Positions 2,417-61,763 of a stretch of 64,000 bases of DNA are shown one piece after another. A program made the translations under genes and the position numbers. Source of the DNA: an uncultured Eubacteriales bacterium. GTDB taxonomy: Bacteria > Bacillota > Clostridia > Christensenellales > UBA1242. The notes beneath the pieces were generated by a model. It saw only the letters and a list, made by a program, of their open reading frames with translations. It made no database searches and was not told the DNA's origin. Numbering within the stretch: the stretch's first letter is position 1; each line of letters opens with the position of its first letter. The stretch spans positions 24,002 to 88,001 of the forward strand of contig CAOQYA010000002.1 of assembly GCA_948514155.1 (NCBI GenBank), written 5' to 3'.

Positions 2417-2492
2417 TGGTCGGAGTGGCGGGATTTGAACCCACGGCCTCTTGGTCCCGAACCAAGCGCGCTACCAACTGCGCTACACCCCG
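2417..2492 (-). tRNA. tRNA-Pro (anticodon CGG), CCA encoded
   Basis: The reverse complement reads CGGGGTGTAGCGCAGTTGGTAGCGCGCTTGGTTCGGGACCAAGAGGCCGTGGGTTCAAATCCCGCCACTCCGACCA. The cloverleaf arms pair and the anticodon loop is TTCGGGA. Confidence 0.9.
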
Positions 2493-13723: not shown

Positions 13724-13825
13724 GCAAAAAGTATAGCATATCGTTTGACAAAAAGAAAAGAAATGTGCTAGAATTTTTATAGTTTTAAAAAGCAATGACG
13801 AAAGAACATGGCCGAGTGTTTGCAA

Positions 13826-14026
13826 ATTCAGAGAGGTTTAGGTTGGTGCGATAAACTGTTGCAATTTCGGTGAATTCACTTTCCGAGCTGTCCGGCTGAA
13901 AATTTAAGTAGGCTGGGTCGGGTGCGACCGTGATATCGCAACTTGAGGGCGCAACAAAAAGCGCTGAAATTAGGTGGTAACGTGAAAGAGAACTCTTTCG
14001 CCCTAATGTGGCGGGGGAGTTTTTTT
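13826..14026 (+). promoter_or_regulatory. T-box leader (tRNA-Phe-responsive) with terminator/antiterminator, upstream of pheS
   Basis: T-box sequence AAATTAGGTGGTAACGTG (13967-13984). Terminator CTCTTTCGCC-ctaatgt-GGCGGGGGAG plus a T-run (13993-14026). UUC triplets are present in the upstream stem region. Confidence 0.8.
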
Positions 14027-14039
14027 AAAAGGAGAGAGC

Positions 14040-15059
14040 ATGATAGAAAAATTGCAGAAAATTAAAGAAAATGCGAGTGCTGAACTTTCGGGTGTTTCCG
14101 ATAAGGCGACGCTTGCCGCTTACAAGGTTAAATTTCTGGGCAAGCAGGGTGCTTTGACCGAAGTTTTGAGGGGGATGCGCGAAGTTTCGCCGGAGGACAG
14201 GCCTAAAGTTGGCGCACTTGTCAACGAAATTCGCGATGCAATCGAAAGTGCTGTTGCGGCAAAAGAAAGGGAGTTTGAAAGGGCAGAACTTGAAAAAGAA
14301 CTTGCAAGTTCTTTCATTGACATTTCGGAGCCTTCAAAAGGTCATGAAAAGGGCGCTCTGCATCCTCTTTCTCGCGTTTATGAAACTCTGATTGACGCTT
14401 GTGTGAACATCGGCTTTAAAGTTGTTGACGGACCAGAGGTGGAACTTGATTATTACAACTTTGAAGCGCTCAATGTGCCAAAAAATCACCCGGCGAGGGA
14501 TATGCAAGACACTTTCTTTATCTCCGACAATCTCCTTCTTCGCTCGCAGACATCTTCTGTGCAGGCGCGTGCAATGAAGTCGCTCACTCCGCCGTTTAAG
14601 ATAATTTCACCCGGTCGAGTTTACAGAAATGATAGCGACGCCACACACTCGCCGGTTTTTCACCAAATGGAAGGGCTTGTTGTGGACGAAAATGTGTCTA
14701 TGGCCGACCTTAAGAGCATGCTGACTTCGCTGATGCGCAAAACTTTTGGCGAAAACACTGAGCTTCGCTTCCGTCCGTCCTTCTTCCCATTCACCGAGCC
14801 GTCTGTCGAGGTTGATGTAACTTGCCCAACTTGCCACGGCGAGGGCTGCCGCATTTGCAAGGGAACCGGCTTCTTGGAACTGCTCGGAGCGGGAATTGTC
14901 AACCCAAAAGTGCTTGAAATGGGCGGAATAGACAGCAAGAAATATCGCGGCTTTGCTTTCGGCTTTGGAGTTGACCGTGTGGCAATGGTCAAAGACGGAA
15001 TAGGCGATATCCGCTCGATGTTTAGAAATGATATTCGTTTCTTAAAACAAATGAAATAG
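14040..15059 (+). CDS. pheS: Phenylalanyl-tRNA synthetase alpha subunit
   Basis: Class II aaRS motifs (FRPSFFPFTEPS, GFAFGFGVDR). Confidence 0.95.
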   Translation: MIEKLQKIKENASAELSGVSDKATLAAYKVKFLGKQGALTEVLRGMREVSPEDRPKVGALVNEIRDAIESAVAAKEREFERAELEKELASSFIDISEPSKGHEKGALHPLSRVYETLIDACVNIGFKVVDGPEVELDYYNFEALNVPKNHPARDMQDTFFISDNLLLRSQTSSVQARAMKSLTPPFKIISPGRVYRNDSDATHSPVFHQMEGLVVDENVSMADLKSMLTSLMRKTFGENTELRFRPSFFPFTEPSVEVDVTCPTCHGEGCRICKGTGFLELLGAGIVNPKVLEMGGIDSKKYRGFAFGFGVDRVAMVKDGIGDIRSMFRNDIRFLKQMK

Positions 15060-41122: not shown

Positions 41123-41863
41123 TTATTCTTCGGCCTCTTCTGGAAGATTTACATTGTGATAAACCTCTTGCACATCGTCGAGGTCTTCCAAAATGCCGAG
41201 CATTTTTGTGAATGTTGCCAGCTTTTGTTCGTCGAGGTCTACATACATGTCCGGCACGAGGCTAACCTCGCTCATGACAACATGATAGCCCGCGTTTTCG
41301 AGAGCGCTCTTTACGCTTTCAGTCTCGTTTGGCTCTGCGATAACTTCAATTTCGTCGTCCTGTTCAATCACATCTTTTGCTCCCGCTTCTAGGGCGTCAA
41401 GCATAAGTGCGTCGCTATCAAGCCCCTCCTCGCGTGGGATAATGATAATTCCCTTTCTCTGGAAAAGATAACTAACGCAGCCCGAAGAGCCAAGTGCTCC
41501 GCCGTGCTTATCAAAAGCATGACGAACATCGCCTGCCGTTCTGTTTTTGTTATCAGTTAAGCAGTCGACAATAACTGCCGAGCCGCCCACGCCATAGCCT
41601 TCATACACGATAGACTCATAGTTAACGCTTCCCAGTTCTCCCGACGCTTTCTTGATACTTCTATCTATGTTGTCGTTTGGCATATTGTTCTGCTTTGCTT
41701 TTGCAACAACAGCGCGAAGTGCTGAGTTAGAGTTAACGTCAGGGCCGCCGAGCTTGACTGCAACAGCGATTTCCCTGCCTATTTTTGTGAATATCTTGCT
41801 TCTTGCAGCGTCGGCTTTGCCTTTCGTTGCTTGAATATTGTGCCATTTTGAGTGACCAGACAT
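41123..41863 (-). CDS. yebC: YebC/PmpR family DNA-binding transcriptional regulator
   Basis: [27 protein letters not shown]... is the canonical YebC N-terminus. Confidence 0.95.
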
Positions 41864-41869
41864 AAAAAC

Positions 41870-42215
41870 CTCCTTGAATTCGCGAAGGACACCAAATTTT
41901 TTAACGCGGACACGCCTAAAGGCTGGCCGCTAAAATTCGGATTTCCCTCGCGGGCTCCCTTCCGCATCACTCGCCGCACCTCGGGTGCTTGCGTCGTGAT
42001 AGATGGGCTAGTCTAACTACGCTCGAAAAGTAAACTTTTCGGCTTTTTGGCCGGGCGAAGCCCTTCCACCAAAAAGTTAGACATACGCTAGATTGGAATT
42101 AGAACTCTCTGCCCTTCCTTCCAAAACCAACTTTTGCGTTTTTTAATTTTAAACTTTTGGTCGGGCACAGCCCTTCCCCTCCAAAACTGGATTTCGCAGA
42201 TTATTGTTAAGAAAG
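41870..42215 (-). repeat. GC-rich structured intergenic element (type 2, long form) abutting the yebC RBS
   Basis: Shared blocks with 56875-57065: TTAACGCGGRCACG, CCGCTA, TTCCCTC, GGGC-NNN-GCCC hairpin units (42044-42075, 42155-42186, half unit 42111-42126) and CTGGATKTCGCA. Confidence 0.7.
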
Positions 42216-42284
42216 TCCGCGATGCTTTCTAATACACTGTCTATTTTATACTGTTTTGTTGAGATTTCAAAGTGATTAGCATGT

Positions 42285-49911: not shown

Positions 49912-50442
49912 TTATGCACCTGTTAATATCAAAATATCTTCATTTGCAATGTCGACCACAGTTTGTATGGCTGTGACGAGGTTGAGCCTCACCGAAATGT
50001 TGTCTGCTCCACTCGCCGACACCAGCACGCCCTTAATTTCGGGATATATCTCCTTCACAAGCACAGGTTTGCCCGAGACGAGGATAATGCTGCTTGTCGT
50101 TGTTGAGCCGGACGAGTTTTCTTTGACCGTCTCTTCGGTGGCGTAGACATATTCAAAGCCGCTGCCGAGAGTGACCAGCACACTCACATTGCCAGCACCC
50201 TTGACTTGGCTGAGAATGCCCTCAAGCTTGTCCTCCAAGCCTTTGGCGTAAGCCTCGGCGTCAGAGGCTGATATTGATGTGTCGGTCTCTTTTTGCGGGC
50301 TTTTCGCCGGAGTGCGAATGAAAAGGAAATAGCATAATATCAACATTCCTATAACTAGGATGGCCAGTCCTATTTGTAGTTTTCGATTTTCCTTTATGCT
50401 TCGCCCAAGATTTTTAAGCTTGTCCAAAAACTCACCTTTCAA
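49912..50442 (-). CDS. spoIIIAG: Stage III sporulation protein AG
   Basis: TM segment plus the conserved C-terminal GVLVSASGADN... Probable TTG start at 50442 after GGAGGTG. Confidence 0.8.
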   Translation of the reverse strand: MKGEFLDKLKNLGRSIKENRKLQIGLAILVIGMLILCYFLFIRTPAKSPQKETDTSISASDAEAYAKGLEDKLEGILSQVKGAGNVSVLVTLGSGFEYVYATEETVKENSSGSTTTSSIILVSGKPVLVKEIYPEIKGVLVSASGADNISVRLNLVTAIQTVVDIANEDILILTGA

Positions 50443-50932
50443 AATGCACCTCCGACGCCTCGACTTTTGCATGAGCAATCACTATCTCTAGTATTTCGTG
50501 CTCGATGTCTAAAATATCTTTATGTTTGGCATTCTCTGTTATGACTAAATTCCTTAGTTCGACATATATCGCATTAATCTTAAAGTTTGTGGAGAAGTTT
50601 TCGGCTGAAACTGACACTTCAACATTATTGTAACCACTTTTTTTTATGTCGAGTGAAATGCCCTCTTGTATCGCTTTCGTCTTATATACATTCATTTGAT
50701 AGATGTAGTCTTCTTGGAGCGTGTAGTTATCTGATATGGAAATGTCGGAAAAGGAGAAGTTTTTGCCAATTAGGCCAGGGAGCGGCGCGATTATAACAAG
50801 CACAACAATGAATGAAAATATGCTGCGAATATATTTGTTAAGTTGACCTTCCGGCAGCATCAGTTCCACAATGACCGATAGGCTGATTATGCCGGCGATT
50901 GAAAGTATCCACGCAGAAACAGAGCCAAACAT
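50432..50932 (-). CDS. spoIIIAF: Stage III sporulation protein AF
   Basis: Two N-terminal TM segments (WILSIAGIISLSVIVELMLPEG) and operon position. Confidence 0.8.
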   Translation of the reverse strand: MFGSVSAWILSIAGIISLSVIVELMLPEGQLNKYIRSIFSFIVVLVIIAPLPGLIGKNFSFSDISISDNYTLQEDYIYQMNVYKTKAIQEGISLDIKKSGYNNVEVSVSAENFSTNFKINAIYVELRNLVITENAKHKDILDIEHEILEIVIAHAKVEASEVHFER

Positions 50933-50973
50933 CTTTTCGTCCTCCTTTTTTGTTAATTAGATTTTTCTTGAAC

Positions 50974-51100
50974 GGGGCGACGCAATCGGCGCGCGCGTAG
51001 CGCGCGCCCCCGCCCTCGGGCGCCAAGCGCAAAAAGTATTTTTGCGAGCCGCCCGAGGGCTGTAAATTTCGCCTCCGGCGAAATTTGCTTGCGTCGCCCC
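50974..51100. repeat. GC-rich perfect four-way-junction (cloverleaf-like) palindromic element between spoIIIAE and spoIIIAF
   Basis: Outer 12-bp stem 50974-50985/51089-51100. Arms: 50988-51008 (9 bp); 51012-51022/51050-51060 (11 bp) enclosing 51028-51046 (8 bp); and 51064-51086 (10 bp). All pairs are Watson-Crick. Confidence 0.8.
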
Positions 51101-51120
51101 ACTTGTCCTTGCCCCGAGTG

Positions 51121-55398: not shown

Positions 55399-55956
55399 TT
55401 ATGCTCTACTCATGTAAGAGCCGTCGCGGGTGTCAATTCTCACGCGCTCGCCTTGGCTGATAAAAAGTGGAACATTGATAACATATCCCGTCTCAAGTTT
55501 AGCCGGCTTTGTGGCAGCCTTTGAAGTGTCGCCCTGCACTGCCGGCTCGCAGTCAACAATTTCAAGTTCAACAAATGTTGGAGGATAAACTGAAAATGGA
55601 GTTCCTTTGTAGAAATACATTGTTGCGTTCATGTTCTCCACCATAAACTTAAGCGCTTCCTCAACAGCGTCATAGTTAAGTGGAATTTGCTCGTATGTTT
55701 CTGCGTCCATGAAGTAGTAAAGTTCGCCGTCGCTGTAAAGATAGGTCATTTCCTTTTTCTCGATAACTGCAACTTGGAATTTATCGGAAGGGTTAAAAGT
55801 GAGTTCCTTCACTTGACCTGTCATAACATTTTTGATTTTTGCTCTCACGAATGGTGAGCCTTTGCCCGGCTTAACATGCAAAAAGTCGATAACAGTGTAA
55901 ACTGCACCGTCCATTTCAAAAGTTGTGCCTTTTCTAAATTCTCCAGCTGTAATCAT
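55399..55956 (-). CDS. efp: Elongation factor P
   Basis: [17 protein letters not shown]...[16 protein letters not shown]. Confidence 0.97.
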
Positions 55957-56000: not shown

Positions 56001-56867
56001 TTATTGCGTCTTAGCAAGCAATTTTTTGTAAATTCTTTTCATTTCTGCGGCGTCTTTTGCCATATGCCCTGCCGACTCCGAAATTATTCGCGGATGCAGG
56101 TCAAGTTCGACAAGAGCCTCGGCAAGCGGCTGAAAGTTTGGGCCATAGATTTCGTCGTCAAAATTCAGGTGGCGAATTTCGCCTTTCTCGCCAAATTGAA
56201 TTTTGGAAAAGTGGATGTGTGCGATGTTTGTTTTCTCATAGCCGATAACATCAATCGAGCGCTGCAGAATTTTCTTGAAATCGTCCTTAGTTTTCAGCGA
56301 GCCCTGAGTGAGCGCGTTGATGTGTCCAAAATCGAAGGTCGGAATAAGGTGGGCGTTGCCGGCGCAGATTTCAAGCACTTCTTCATATGTGCCAATTTGC
56401 ATCTGCTTGCCCATTGTCTCAGGGCAGAGATAAATTCCCTCCAAAAGCCCTTCACTATCAAGTGCGTTCACAAGTTCTGAAATGCGCTCCTTTGCGATTT
56501 TGAAGGCATCGCTCCTTTCGGCTTTGCCGCAGGAAGCCGGGTGAAAGACCAGCCTGTCAGCCCCAAAAGCCCTCAAAAATTTAATGCCCGTCGTGATGTA
56601 GCCCCTGGTTTTTCCCAGCAGCACTTCGTCAGGCGAGGCAAAATTGATAAAATATGGCGCGTGCAGAGAAAGCGCAATGCCTTCCTCCTTAAACGCATCG
56701 CCAATCTTTCTTGCAGTCTCAGTTGGCATGATGTAGCCGCGGCCGAAAGAATATTCGAATGCGTCAAGCCCCCTTGCCTTCAGCCATTTAGGGGCCTGCA
56801 AGGTTGTTTTGTTGCCTTCAGCATGAAAACTTTCGCTGTTGCCCGCAGGGCCGAAAAGTGTTTGCAT
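56001..56867 (-). CDS. TIM-barrel protein of the endonuclease IV / xylose-isomerase-like superfamily
   Basis: LHAPYFINFASPD, FHPAS, CPETMG, FDFGH (metal-ligand pattern of the Nfo-like family). ATG 56867 follows AGGAGG. Confidence 0.55.
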   Translation of the reverse strand: MQTLFGPAGNSESFHAEGNKTTLQAPKWLKARGLDAFEYSFGRGYIMPTETARKIGDAFKEEGIALSLHAPYFINFASPDEVLLGKTRGYITTGIKFLRAFGADRLVFHPASCGKAERSDAFKIAKERISELVNALDSEGLLEGIYLCPETMGKQMQIGTYEEVLEICAGNAHLIPTFDFGHINALTQGSLKTKDDFKKILQRSIDVIGYEKTNIAHIHFSKIQFGEKGEIRHLNFDDEIYGPNFQPLAEALVELDLHPRIISESAGHMAKDAAEMKRIYKKLLAKTQ

Positions 56868-56874
56868 AATTCCT

Positions 56875-57065
56875 CCTGGGGAGGCACCGACCTCGTTTAA
56901 CGCGGGCACGGTGCTTTGCTAACCTAACCGCTACTCGGTCGGTTCCCTCCCAATCTCCCTCCACTGGCGGGGCTCACCCAGCTTTCCCTCAAGCAAATTC
57001 ATGAATGAATTTCTTTCGGTTGTCGCTGGGCAAAGCCCTTCCCCGACAAAGCTGGATGTCGCATA
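56875..57065 (-). repeat. GC-rich structured intergenic element (type 2, short form) abutting the RBS of the TIM-barrel gene
   Basis: Same blocks as 41870-42215: TTAACGCGGGCACG 56897-56910, CCGCTA 56928-56933, TTCCCTC 56943-56949, hairpin unit 57020-57049, CTGGATGTCGCA 57052-57063. Confidence 0.7.
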
Positions 57066-57078
57066 TTTTAATCAATAT

Positions 57079-57918
57079 TTAATTTAGCCTTATTTCGAGT
57101 TTGAGTTTGCCCTCTCTTGCGTCCGCCAAGCCAAGAAAGGTGCTGCCAAAAAGATTATATCGTCCGTCTTTTAACTTGCATGGCAAAATCTGACCATTCA
57201 AAATTCTTATTTCATTTTCCTTCGAAACTTCCACTTTTTCAAAACTAAAAAGGTCTTCGGGCGCAATAACGCTGAATTTGCCTGCCTTCACATCTTCAAG
57301 CGAGAATGCATCTTTAAGTTTAAAATCTCCACATTTTGTGCGTATTATATCATAACACACGCCACATGTTGATAAACTCGCCGCAAGATCGCGACAGAGC
57401 GCACGAATATATGTGCCCGACGAACACGCAACTTTGAAAACAAAGAGGTTTTTTTCTTTCTCTTCGATAAGTTCAAAATTGTATATTTCAATTTCTTTAG
57501 GATTGAGAGTTGGCTCTTTCCCCTCCCGAGCAAGTTCATATGCTTTTTTTCCATTTATCTTTTTTGCTGAATAAGCCGGCGGCATCTGACTAAGCTTGCC
57601 TAAAAAGGTTGGCAAAATTTTTAAAATGTCTTCTTTTGATATTTTTTTATCGTCAGTTCTTGTTATTTGCCCTTCAAGGTCGAAAGTGTCGCGCTCCTCG
57701 CCGAACTTAAAGGTTGTGATGTATTCTTTATTCTTATTAAGATAAATGTCAAACAGCTTTGTGCAAGAGCCGAGCGCTATTGGCAGCAAGCCCTCCGCTT
57801 CAACATCCAGCGTGCCAAGGTGGCCGGCTTTGCTTGCGCCCGCCGCCCTCTTCACGATATTGACAGCAGTGTTGGAAGAAAGACGACGAGGTTTATTTAA
57901 AAGAACAATTCCGGTCAT
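57079..57918 (-). CDS. truB: tRNA pseudouridine(55) synthase TruB
   Basis: GIVLLNKP...SSN...KAGHLGTLD (catalytic Asp context). Confidence 0.9.
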   Translation of the reverse strand: MTGIVLLNKPRRLSSNTAVNIVKRAAGASKAGHLGTLDVEAEGLLPIALGSCTKLFDIYLNKNKEYITTFKFGEERDTFDLEGQITRTDDKKISKEDILKILPTFLGKLSQMPPAYSAKKINGKKAYELAREGKEPTLNPKEIEIYNFELIEEKEKNLFVFKVACSSGTYIRALCRDLAASLSTCGVCYDIIRTKCGDFKLKDAFSLEDVKAGKFSVIAPEDLFSFEKVEVSKENEIRILNGQILPCKLKDGRYNLFGSTFLGLADAREGKLKLEIRLN

Positions 57919-58886: not shown

Positions 58887-59256
58887 TTTCTGTATCCTCT
58901 TGAGGTGGAATGTCCAGCCCTTTTAAAATTTCTTCCACTCTGATTGCATTTTGCATGTTTTTGTCAAACGCAAAATCGAGTTTTGGCATATGCGGCAGGT
59001 CGAGTTTTTCAGCAAGTTTTGCCTTGATAAAGCCCTCGGACCTTTTCAGCACCTTCATAACTTCGGGTGCACGCGAGTAGTCGCCATCGGTTAGCGCGAT
59101 TTTGACTTTTGCATATCTGAAGTCTGGCGCAACTTTAACATCATTAACGCCAACAAAGGCGTCGATGCGAGGGTCGTTCATTTCAAACGCCACAATCTCT
59201 TGCAGCGCTTTTTGGAGTTTTGCATTTGCTCTGTCTATTCTGTTTGACATTTTCAC
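58861..59256 (-). CDS. rbfA: Ribosome-binding factor A
   Basis: RIDRANAKLQKALQEIV..., KH-like fold size, position after infB. Confidence 0.9.
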   Translation of the reverse strand: MKMSNRIDRANAKLQKALQEIVAFEMNDPRIDAFVGVNDVKVAPDFRYAKVKIALTDGDYSRAPEVMKVLKRSEGFIKAKLAEKLDLPHMPKLDFAFDKNMQNAIRVEEILKGLDIPPQEDTENDSDPEND

Positions 59257-61763
59257 CCCCTATTGATTGGAACGCTGATATAGAATTCGATTATATCGCC
59301 CTCTTTAAAGTCAAGGTTGTCGTGCAGTTTAATTCCGCACTCATAACCTTTAACAACTTCTGCTTTCTCGTCCTTGAGAATTTTGAGGCTTTCAACGGTC
59401 GTTGCTCCAATCTCTTCTTCGCCGCGTTTAACTTTGGCGATGCAGTTTCTGGTGGCTTTGCCGTCTTTCATCATGCAGCCTGCAACTTTTCCGGCTGTGG
59501 AGAGTTTGAAGACCATGCGAATTTCAGCGTTTCCGATATATTGCTCTTCATATTTAATCGAAAGCATGCCGCTGATTGCACGAGTGATGTCGTCAACAAC
59601 TTCATATATGATTTTATATTCCTTAATCTCCACCTTTTCTCTGTCAGCAAGAATTTTTGCCTTGCCGCCCGCTTTAAGGTTGAAGGAAATAATAACTGCC
59701 TTTGTTGTTTCAGCAAGCACAACATCGCTTTCGGTGACAGGCCCTGCTGCAGCATGAACAACATTGACCTTTGCCTCCTCGTTCGAAATTGGCGTGAGTG
59801 TGGAAACAAGCGCTTCCACTGAGCCTTGAGTGTCGGCTTTAATGATAACATTAAGATTTTTGAGTGTCCCCTCGTGAACTCTGTCCATGAAGCCGTCAAG
59901 GCTGACGCCAGAGGTCTTAAGCGCTTTTTCTTTCTTGATTTTGTCAATTCTCTCTTCGATAACCTGTTTCGAAAGGCTTTCGCTCACGGCATAGAACTCG
60001 TCGCCCGAAGAAGGAACTTCATAGAAGCCGAGAACTGAAATTGGAGTTGACGGCGCTGCCGATTTAACAGGTTTTCCGTGCTCGTCGAACATAGCTTTAA
60101 CTTTTCCATAGGTTATGCCGGCAAGGAAACTGTCGCCCACCTTAAGTGTTCCGTTTTGAACGAGAACTGTGGCAACAGGTCCGCGATTTTTGTCAAGTTC
60201 CGCTTCCAAAATAACGCCGGTCGCGGTGCGGTCCGGGTTGGCTTTAAGTTCTTCCATGTCCGCAACAAGAAGTATCATAGACTTAAGTTCGTCCATGCCA
60301 AGTCCGGTCTTAGCCGAAACAGGCACAACAACGGTGTTTCCGCCCCACTCTTCAGGCAGCACATCGTGCTCGGCAAGTTGCTGTTTAACGCGGTCGATAT
60401 TCGCTTCCGGTTTGTCGATTTTGTTGATAGCAACAATCATAGGCACGCCGGCCGCTTTAATGTGATTGATAGCCTCAATGGTCTGTGGCATGATGCCGTC
60501 GTCTGCGGCAACAACAAGAATTGCGATATCGGTCGCTTTCGCCCCCCGCGCGCGCATCTGAGTGAATGCCGCGTGACCAGGAGTGTCGATAAAGGTTATT
60601 TTTTCATTGTTGAAAACAATTTGATATGCGCCGATTTTCTGAGTGATGCCACCCGCTTCGCTTGCAACAACATTGCTCTTTCTAAACGCATCGAGAAGTG
60701 ATGTTTTTCCGTGGTCGACATGGCCCATAACTGTAACAACTGGAGGACGCTTCCTGAGATTTTTCTCGTCGTCTTCGTGGCTTATGTCAATAAGTTTTTC
60801 TTCCATGGTCTTATCAAGCTTAAGTTCCAAGGTTATTCCAAACTCGCTGCACACAAGTTCAGCGGTGTCGAAATCGATGTTTGAGTTGATTGTTGCCATA
60901 ATGCCAAGTATCATAAGTTTTTTAACAATTTCAACAACAGCCTTGCCCGTCTTTTCGCTGAGTTCTTTAACAGAAATTTCTTTCGACGAAAGAACAACAT
61001 GTGTGATTTTTGGCGCGATAATTGTATCTTGCTTTTTCTTATTCTTGTTTGCAAGTTTTCTTGAGCCCATGGTGGTCTCTTCAAAGCCGTCCTCGCTCAT
61101 TGTGATTATGCTGCGGCGATTGTCAAGCCCTTTCTTAGGTGTTGGGCGTGCTTTTTCCTCCACAATGTTTTTCTTTGGCGATTTGTTCTTATTGCCAAAG
61201 TTTCTTTCCGGCTGCGCAATGATAGGCTCCGGCTCATTACCCGCGAAAGAGCGGAAGTTGTTAACTTTTGTGGAAACAAAGTTTGTTTTATTCTGACTAA
61301 AGCCCGGCCTGTTGTTGTTTGCAAAAGGCGGCTTTCTATTAGGGTCAAAATTAGATTGTCTGTTGTTATTAAATGGCCTCTGCCCATTGTTTGGGCGTTG
61401 CTGTTGAAAGTTCGTGCCATTTGTTCTTCTGAAATCTTGATTTGCTTTTCCGGTTGCGCCAATTTGATTTTGGTCAAATCTGCGGAAGTTGTTTTGTGGC
61501 TGTGAAGGAGAATTTGGACGAGAAAAACTCTCCGGCTTCTTGTTTTGTGAAGTCGGCGCTGCAGCGGCAGCCTCTTTTTTCTCCTCTTCCTGCTTCAATC
61601 TGGCCGCCGCAATCTCGGCTGCTTTTTTTGCAGTTTGCATATTGCGTGCCAGTTCGTCGAGTTGAGTCTTGAGCGCTCTAATCTCACGAAGTTGCTCGAG
61701 AATGCTTCCCTCTTTTTGCAGATTATGAATTGTTTTAAGATTGTTAAGTCCTGGGTTTGCCAA
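59253..61763 (-). CDS. infB: Translation initiation factor IF-2 (TTG start)
   Basis: G domain [26 protein letters not shown]-rich N-terminal region. AAGGAG lies 6 nt upstream of the TTG. Confidence 0.97.

Follow-up and report, generated by a model that had tools for sequence, protein, structure and literature searches.

A modular structured repeat of an apparently undescribed family probably occupies the truB–TIM-barrel gene spacer of an uncultured gut Clostridia bacterium

The 64,000-nt stretch of genomic DNA analyzed here (the window) has a 211-nt spacer between truB and a xylose-isomerase-like TIM-barrel gene. We conclude, with a probability of about 0.72, that this spacer holds a member of a modular, non-coding interspersed repeat family that belongs to a clade of uncultured gut Clostridia and is apparently undescribed, and that this copy (el2) is an insertion of ~200 nt into a 10-nt spacer, where it is carried as a compact passenger. 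The element is neither a dedicated regulator of the TIM-barrel gene nor the mark of a rearrangement.

The genes of the locus all lie on the minus strand in the order infB (59253-61763), rbfA, a gene encoding a DHH/DHHA1 protein, truB (57079-57918; PF01509), the 211-nt spacer, the TIM-barrel gene (56001-56867; PF01261) and then efp. The sense strand of el2 is also the minus strand, and el2 features are given on that strand unless the plus strand is named. The complete inserted element spans 56876/56878-57078, between the truB stop codon (57079-57081) and the Shine-Dalgarno (SD) sequence of the TIM-barrel gene, and is 201 nt long if it ends in ...CCUCCCC or 203 nt if the terminal AG is counted in. 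The span given for it in the earlier note falls short of the insertion only by its first 13 nt (57066-57078), which are AT-rich. Downstream of the element is host sequence (56865-56877) composed of the SD AGGAGG (56872-56877), a spacer AAUU and the ATG (56865-56867), an SD arrangement like that at empty sites; the sense-strand sequence just 5' of the ATG (56867-56865) is GCCTCCCCAGGAGGAATTATG. The blocks named in the earlier note were all found where it had placed them on the plus strand: TTAACGCGGGCACG at 56897-56910, CCGCTA at 56928-56933, TTCCCTC at 56943-56949, TTGTCG/CGACAA (57020-57025/57044-57049) flanking GGGC-aaa-GCCC, and CTGGATGTCGCA at 57052-57063. The el2 spacer is identical across nine independent assemblies of the same species and hence el2 is not an assembly artefact. 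A promoter and terminator scan of the el2 sense strand predicted neither. A small open reading frame in el2 (AUG at 57064) was rejected as a coding sequence because el1, the sister copy described below, has CUG at that position and the start is not conserved.

To the earlier note, the element replaced what normally follows truB and marked a rearrangement junction. Homologues of the TIM protein were taken, and their loci were fetched and compared with the window. The gene order infB-rbfA-DHH-truB-TIM-efp-spoIIIAA is kept in loci from four lineages (L040-L045; TIM protein 73-77% identical), in which only 10-11 nt of the form TTAAATTAA|AGGAGnnnnATG separate the truB stop codon from the TIM ATG and the element is absent. 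The filled site of the window, with its 211-nt gap, reads TAA|ATATTGATT...GGTGCCTCCCC|AGGAGGAATTATG, such that the 201-203 extra nucleotides begin right after the truB stop codon and end right before an SD that is unchanged. As relatives keep the truB-TIM-efp order with a 10-11 nt spacer, el2 is an insertion, and the synteny comparison refutes the rearrangement junction. A closer relative (L046; TIM protein 85% identical) has the same element at the same site, again in a 211-nt gap, with few substitutions, some of which are compensatory. Another locus (L047; TIM protein 89% identical, 11-nt spacer) was excluded as an empty site because the end of its upstream open reading frame was not TruB-like. 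The filled and empty sites were compared between species rather than within a population and provide one clean junction for el2. At that junction pair (filled TAA|ATATTG...CCUCCCC|AGGAGG; empty TAA|AGGAG) no target-site duplication is seen, with a possible ambiguity of 2 nt (AG). No terminal inverted repeats were found within 56840-57110, where the only inverted repeats are internal helices and the ends of the element do not match.

The sister copy, el1, is longer (about 41872-42198, minus strand) and sits in the spacer between a SpoU-type methylase gene, which comes after rplT, and yebC. The proposal that el2 is a shorter homologue of an element at 41870-42215, lying in the same orientation relative to its downstream gene, was borne out on both counts. 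The two copies are built of the same modules, a 5' block (TGCGAMATCCAG), hairpins with the tip GAAGGGC-NNN-GCCC, and a 3' core region having the plan GGGAA-N9-10-TAGCGG-N17-22-GTGYCCGCGTTAAA, and their likeness exceeds chance. The hairpin motif GGGGAAGGGCTNTGCCC occurs three times in the 64-kb window, each time within el1 or el2, versus 0.2 occurrences expected. A covariance model of the core (R1, described below) matches only two places in the 64 kb: the el2 core, of subtype A (56874-56972; 78.5 bits, E=2e-18), and the el1 core, of subtype B (41878-41973, minus strand; 70.8 bits, E=3e-16). For el1 there is a promoter-like sequence (TTGAAA-16-TAAAAT) upstream. Both window copies lie upstream of operons that contain either yebC (41123-41863) or efp (55399-55956). 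Proteins of the YebC/TACO1 family and EF-P are both reported to rescue ribosomes stalled on polyproline.

The site occupied by el1 is itself polymorphic. The spacer between the SpoU-type methylase gene and yebC is 9 nt in one relative (L050), and 139 nt without the element in another (L049); in the window and L048 it is filled. At this site L001 and L048 carry an A-type, el2-like core, where the window carries a B-type core. Over its first ~115-130 nt their spacer is near-identical to that of the window, with three substitutions in L001 and more in L048, and beyond this shared first part the remainder of the element is replaced (window 41864-42284, minus strand, versus L001:2647-3000 and L048:770-1122). 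The YebC protein of L001 is identical to that of the window. This exchange of cores suggests recombination or replacement between copies of the family.

The conserved unit of the family is the 3' core of ~100 nt, which forms four helices (P1-P4). Subtype A cores have the plan GGAGGGAGAUUGGGA-GGGAAC ... (G/U)UAGCGGUUAG-hairpin-CGUGYCCGCGUUAAA ... GGUGCCUCCCCAG, with (G/U)UAG preceding the GC-rich P3 helix. In el2 the core contains the inverted repeat I1 (56877-56892/56937-56952). RNAalifold analysis of 20 cores gave a single irregular hairpin consisting of the closing helix P1, a variable P2, P3 (GCGG/CCGC) and a variable terminal hairpin P4. The internal loops, (G/U)UA...GUUAAA and UUA...CGUGY, are near-invariant. 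In a 29-sequence model alignment, which was fitted to R1 itself and is thereby biased towards the structure, 93.2% of the cells were paired, as compared with 74.3% in shuffles and 43-56% when the partners were slid, and 13 of the 20 core pairs had changed on both sides; an independent MAFFT alignment gave 11 compensated pairs. The third core subtype (L023, L039) keeps P3 by a change of GCGG/CCGC to GCUG/CAGC. G.U pairs outnumber A.C mismatches in the core (51 versus 9), and thus the sense strand is the strand under selection to fold.

Upstream of the core, el2 has a 5' domain that folds into a three-way junction (56975-57058), as indicated by inverted repeat I2 and by compensatory changes. Its helices are Pa (57048-57058 with 56975-56985), Pb, which is the GAAGGGC-UUU-GCCC hairpin (57022-57047), and Pc (56995-57012). 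All three are kept by compensatory changes among el2, L046 and L048/L001, and the junction sequences are conserved. Comparison of el2 with L048 shows five or more double changes in this domain with pairing maintained; the Pb pairs of L048 were checked explicitly because the automatic alignment of the 5' domain was mis-registered there. Covariation support for the fold of the element is therefore present in both the 3' core and the 5' domain. The 5' block TGCGACATCCAG (57052-57063), the 3' half of which is the 5' strand of Pa, has its el1 counterpart in TGCGAAATCCAG (42187-42198, minus strand) and was seen only in the window, L001, L046 and L048, which form one species group. GAAGGGC-NNN-GCCC hairpins vary in number, with one in el2 and two or three in el1, L001 and L048, and always lie 5' of a core in constant orientation. 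Three resemblances to known motifs were considered and set aside. A K-turn at the GGAA/GA internal loop was rejected by eye since the 3' strand varies among AG, GA and G in different copies. A retron msr-like branching G in UUAGCG was rejected because only ~50 nt lie between the P2 strands and there is no adjacent reverse transcriptase gene, and an attC-like GTTRRRY was dropped given that there is no cassette context.

A search pattern drawn from the shared 3' region was run on the GTDB representative genomes and gave 18 genuine core copies, all in metagenome-assembled genomes (MAGs) of uncultured Clostridia, Christensenellaceae or Eubacteriales from mouse, rabbit, deer and other guts. One further match (L024) was dropped as a chance hit because it had no other features of the family. 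R1 was built from the copies found by the pattern and gave 29 matches in all across the fetched loci. The copies are found in varied contexts. The rpsG|fusA spacer holds up to four units in tandem (L023, L025, L039), and copies also lie in the fusA|tuf (L027), rpoB|rpoC (L026) and secY|adk (L020) spacers. Others are located past an rRNA methylase gene and ahead of a sigma-factor gene (L038), upstream of dnaJ (L029), past a gene resembling that of the CCA-adding enzyme (L032), within a tRNA gene cluster 6 nt ahead of the next tRNA (L021), and immediately 5' of the 5' end of 16S rRNA (L030; located by eye as AGAGTTTGATCCTGGCT). T-box leaders are a further site (L022; L031, with two tandem copies; and L033:4534-4882); those of L031 and L033 are tyrS leaders, and the element replaces stem III. 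In L033 the full length of the Rfam T-box model can be aligned with the leader, which has a 130-nt insertion at the stem III position, and the score is 59 bits versus a gathering score of 93. Such leaders are therefore missed by standard annotation. Translation or transcription loci account for about 13 of the 18 distinct sites, a bias that could be due to a target preference for highly transcribed DNA, to selection or to sampling bias.

Both orientations relative to the host operon are found, and about half of the copies are antisense. The subtypes have opposite preferences. A-type cores (GGAGGGAGAUUGGGACGGGGAAC...GGUGCCUCCCCAG), the type of el2, are mostly sense, whereas B-type cores (GGAAAGGGGYCCGCG-GGGAAAAC...GGUUGUCCCCGCG), the type of el1, are mostly antisense with the 3' end abutting the stop codon of a convergent gene. 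The third subtype (UAGCUGUUAG...CGUGUCAGCGUCAAG) forms tandem units of ~245 nt that are antisense in the rpsG|fusA spacer (L039:480-1040 and L023:4100-4420). By eye, the element strand of each unit shows a promoter-like TTGACT-N17-TAAACT close to consensus, and independent transcription of these copies is therefore conceivable. At another locus (L037:6126-6152) a convergent open reading frame extends 26 nt into the element, where the repeat appears to supply the last residues (...TWGGTKQV*) together with the stop codon. A second accessory hairpin with the conserved tip AGAACUGCGUUCG lies 5' of the core in two unrelated loci (L020:1060-1125 and L032:262-330, minus strand) and adds to the modular picture of the family.

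Copy number is modest, with two copies in the 64-kb window. No transposase or other partner gene was seen beside any copy; the flanking open reading frames of 15 loci are housekeeping genes. A distant-mode blastn search of plasmid and phage collections gave no match to el2, the pattern had no matches in viral contigs, and in metagenome contigs it was found at one locus only. When the whole window was searched with Rfam 15 at gathering score, neither element was matched, and at E<=10 el1 and el2 gave only noise, with no ribozyme or guide-RNA family among the hits. No earlier description of the el1/el2 repeat family was found in a literature search. The only Rfam matches in the window are an intact T-box leader (13786-14008, plus strand; 107 bits) upstream of an open reading frame at 14040-15059, and one tRNA gene (2420-2492, minus strand). 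The window also contains a 188-nt spacer (50933-51120, minus strand) upstream of the gene at 50432-50932, which has 59% GC versus a window average of 42% and is full of long GC-rich palindromes such as GGGGCGACGCAA...TTGCGTCGCCCC and GCGCGCGCTACGCGCGCGC. It is unrelated in sequence to el1 and el2 and is probably the element called type 1 in the earlier note.

Other small interspersed repeats that fold extensively are already known, and some of these are modular (PMC3049150; PMC2267715). The BOX (boxA-boxB(n)-boxC), RUP and SPRITE repeats of Streptococcus pneumoniae are likewise small, non-coding, intergenic and extensively structured (PMC3049150). BOX resembles the present family in being built of modules with internal hairpins that vary in number, in its location within or between operons where it is co-transcribed with its neighbours, and in its low rate of movement; one BOX element also forms a composite with T-box riboswitches, as is seen in L031 and L033 (PMC3049150). 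However, the terminal inverted repeats of BOX and RUP are linked to insertion sequence elements (PMC3049150), whereas the el1/el2 family has no terminal inverted repeats. The host clade also differs, and the el1/el2 core has much stronger covariation, invariant loops and strand-specific folding; the analogy with BOX is one of kind only. REP/BIME, ERIC and Correia elements are also structured extragenic repeats of short operon spacers, located immediately past stop codons in both orientations and at times clustered (PMC2267715). A REP is a single imperfect palindrome of 20-40 nt, in contrast to a ~100-nt four-helix core with accessory domains, and Correia and ERIC elements have terminal inverted repeats and TA duplications that are absent from el2. 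REPs are associated with a RAYT and are headed by GTAG, of which the (G/U)UAG before P3 is reminiscent. Non-autonomous elements derived from IS200/IS605 (PATEs) move as single-stranded DNA. The likeness of el2 to PATEs lies in the absence of terminal inverted repeats and target duplication, in strand-specific folding and in insertion into a very short AT-rich intergenic target; however, the folded unit of the el2 family is far larger than a TnpA-binding hairpin, and neither a conserved target tetranucleotide nor a consistent orientation could be made out. The presence or absence of the element differs between related genomes, and the copies are short, non-coding and multiple, as are those of a MITE; given that both terminal inverted repeats and target-site duplications are missing, the family is not a classical MITE. 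The best-supported assignment is that the el1/el2 family is of the same kind as BOX, REP/BIME and other stem-loop repeats and is a member of none of those families.

The sequence CCUCCCC at the 3' end of el2 (56878-56884) lies 0 nt from AGGAGG and had been read as an anti-SD able to occlude the ribosome binding site. This raises the explanation that el2 regulates the TIM-barrel gene in cis from its 5' UTR in the manner of a riboswitch or thermosensor, with CCUCC pairing either internally or with the GGAGG of the ribosome binding site. The CCUCC:GGAGG pairing can indeed be drawn and is cheap, since enforcing that hairpin costs only +1.1 kcal/mol in the model. Moreover, the fold is conserved and el1 also lies in the sense orientation 5' of its gene, the SD of which has an AAGG that can pair with CCUU. 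A pyrimidine-rich CCUCC beside the SD in a structured 5' region is also what SD-sequestering riboswitch and RNA-thermometer leaders have. However, CCUCCCC is the 3' strand of P1, an internal helix strand, in every A-type copy, antisense copies included, and it is conserved whether the next feature is an SD, a tRNA, 16S rRNA or a T-box antiterminator, whereas B-type copies end in GUCCCCGCG instead. In a Boltzmann ensemble of el2 plus the gene start CCUCCCC pairs with GGGAGG (56946-56951) with a probability of 0.63-0.79, and the SD bases of the TIM-barrel gene are unpaired with probabilities of 0.28-0.52 per base. The enforced alternative hairpin destroys the covariation-supported helices P1-P3. 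In addition, no single gene family goes with the element, and the orthologous 5' regions of the TIM-barrel gene and of yebC in relatives have spacers of 9-11 nt without it. Modelling thus makes SD occlusion by el2 physically conceivable, but evolutionary comparison does not support it; nor is it supported as the purpose of the element, because CCUCCCC serves P1 whatever lies downstream. The cis-regulator explanation is already disfavoured and we regard it as very unlikely. A function as an intercistronic transcription terminator or attenuator that parts truB from the TIM-efp genes would accord with the very stable predicted structure between the two cistrons (-80 kcal/mol, z = -3.6), but no sense-strand helix is followed by a U-tract, the terminator scan was empty, the SD follows directly and no promoter was detected that could re-initiate transcription for the TIM-barrel gene. 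We give this explanation almost no credence.

The remaining alternative, which we consider unlikely but retain, is that the family is a multi-copy functional RNA module: a self-cleaving or processing ribozyme, a guide or scaffold RNA of omega-RNA-like or retroelement-like type that serves the protein of a mobile element, or a protein-binding stabilizer or insulator recruited by the host in highly expressed operons. The invariant internal loops (UAGCGGUUAG and CGUGYCCGCGUUAAA) combined with freely covarying stems across many species resemble a functional RNA more closely than a typical MITE or a decaying parasite. The strand-specific folding, the conserved junction sequences of the 5' three-way junction and the maintenance of P3 in the third subtype point the same way, and the enrichment in translation and transcription operons is not obviously predicted by a purely selfish element. 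The opposite orientation preferences of the A and B subtypes are a further oddity. In its mobile form this alternative would make the core and accessory junction domains a new class of functional mobile RNA, either a self-processing ribozyme or a guide/scaffold RNA for a protein of the element or of the host, with the loops as active or binding site, that spreads preferentially into highly transcribed translation operons, tRNA clusters and T-box leaders; this too we consider unlikely. Against a functional RNA are the antisense copies, from which a sense RNA could be made only with a promoter of the element itself (for el2 the scan detected none), the failure to match any ribozyme or guide-RNA family in Rfam, the lack of an associated protein gene beside the copies and the absence of the element from close relatives without visible consequence.

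We therefore favor the interspersed repeat insertion, for which the following course of events seems most plausible. A copy of ~200 nt, having the ~100-nt core with its strand-specific four-helix irregular hairpin and, 5' of it, accessory hairpin modules of the kind that vary in number among copies, would have entered a spacer of 10 nt that ran from the truB stop codon to the TIM SD in an operon whose order was otherwise conserved. The distribution of the family suggests that it is mobile. Once inserted, el2 is most likely co-transcribed with truB, the TIM-barrel gene and efp as a compact passenger structure, in which its own P1 helix would tie up the CCUCCCC tail and leave the SD available. 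Should the TIM-barrel gene be affected at all, for example through the loss of close coupling to truB or through changes in mRNA processing or stability, this would be a side effect of the insertion. It is probably for the propagation or maintenance of the element itself that the fold is conserved, either as single-stranded DNA or as RNA, and recombination between copies and tandem duplication would also take place.

For annotation, the analysis removes one false riboswitch candidate and one false rearrangement call, and it contributes the R1 covariance model of a repeat that interrupts T-box leaders, tRNA clusters and core operons in many MAGs of gut Clostridia. With its invariant loops, covarying stems, strand-specific folding, subtype orientation preferences and bias towards translation operons, the family is unusually well suited to the study of how structured repeats persist. 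If the core proves to be catalytic, or to be a protein or guide scaffold, the family would constitute a new class of mobile RNA element from uncultured organisms.
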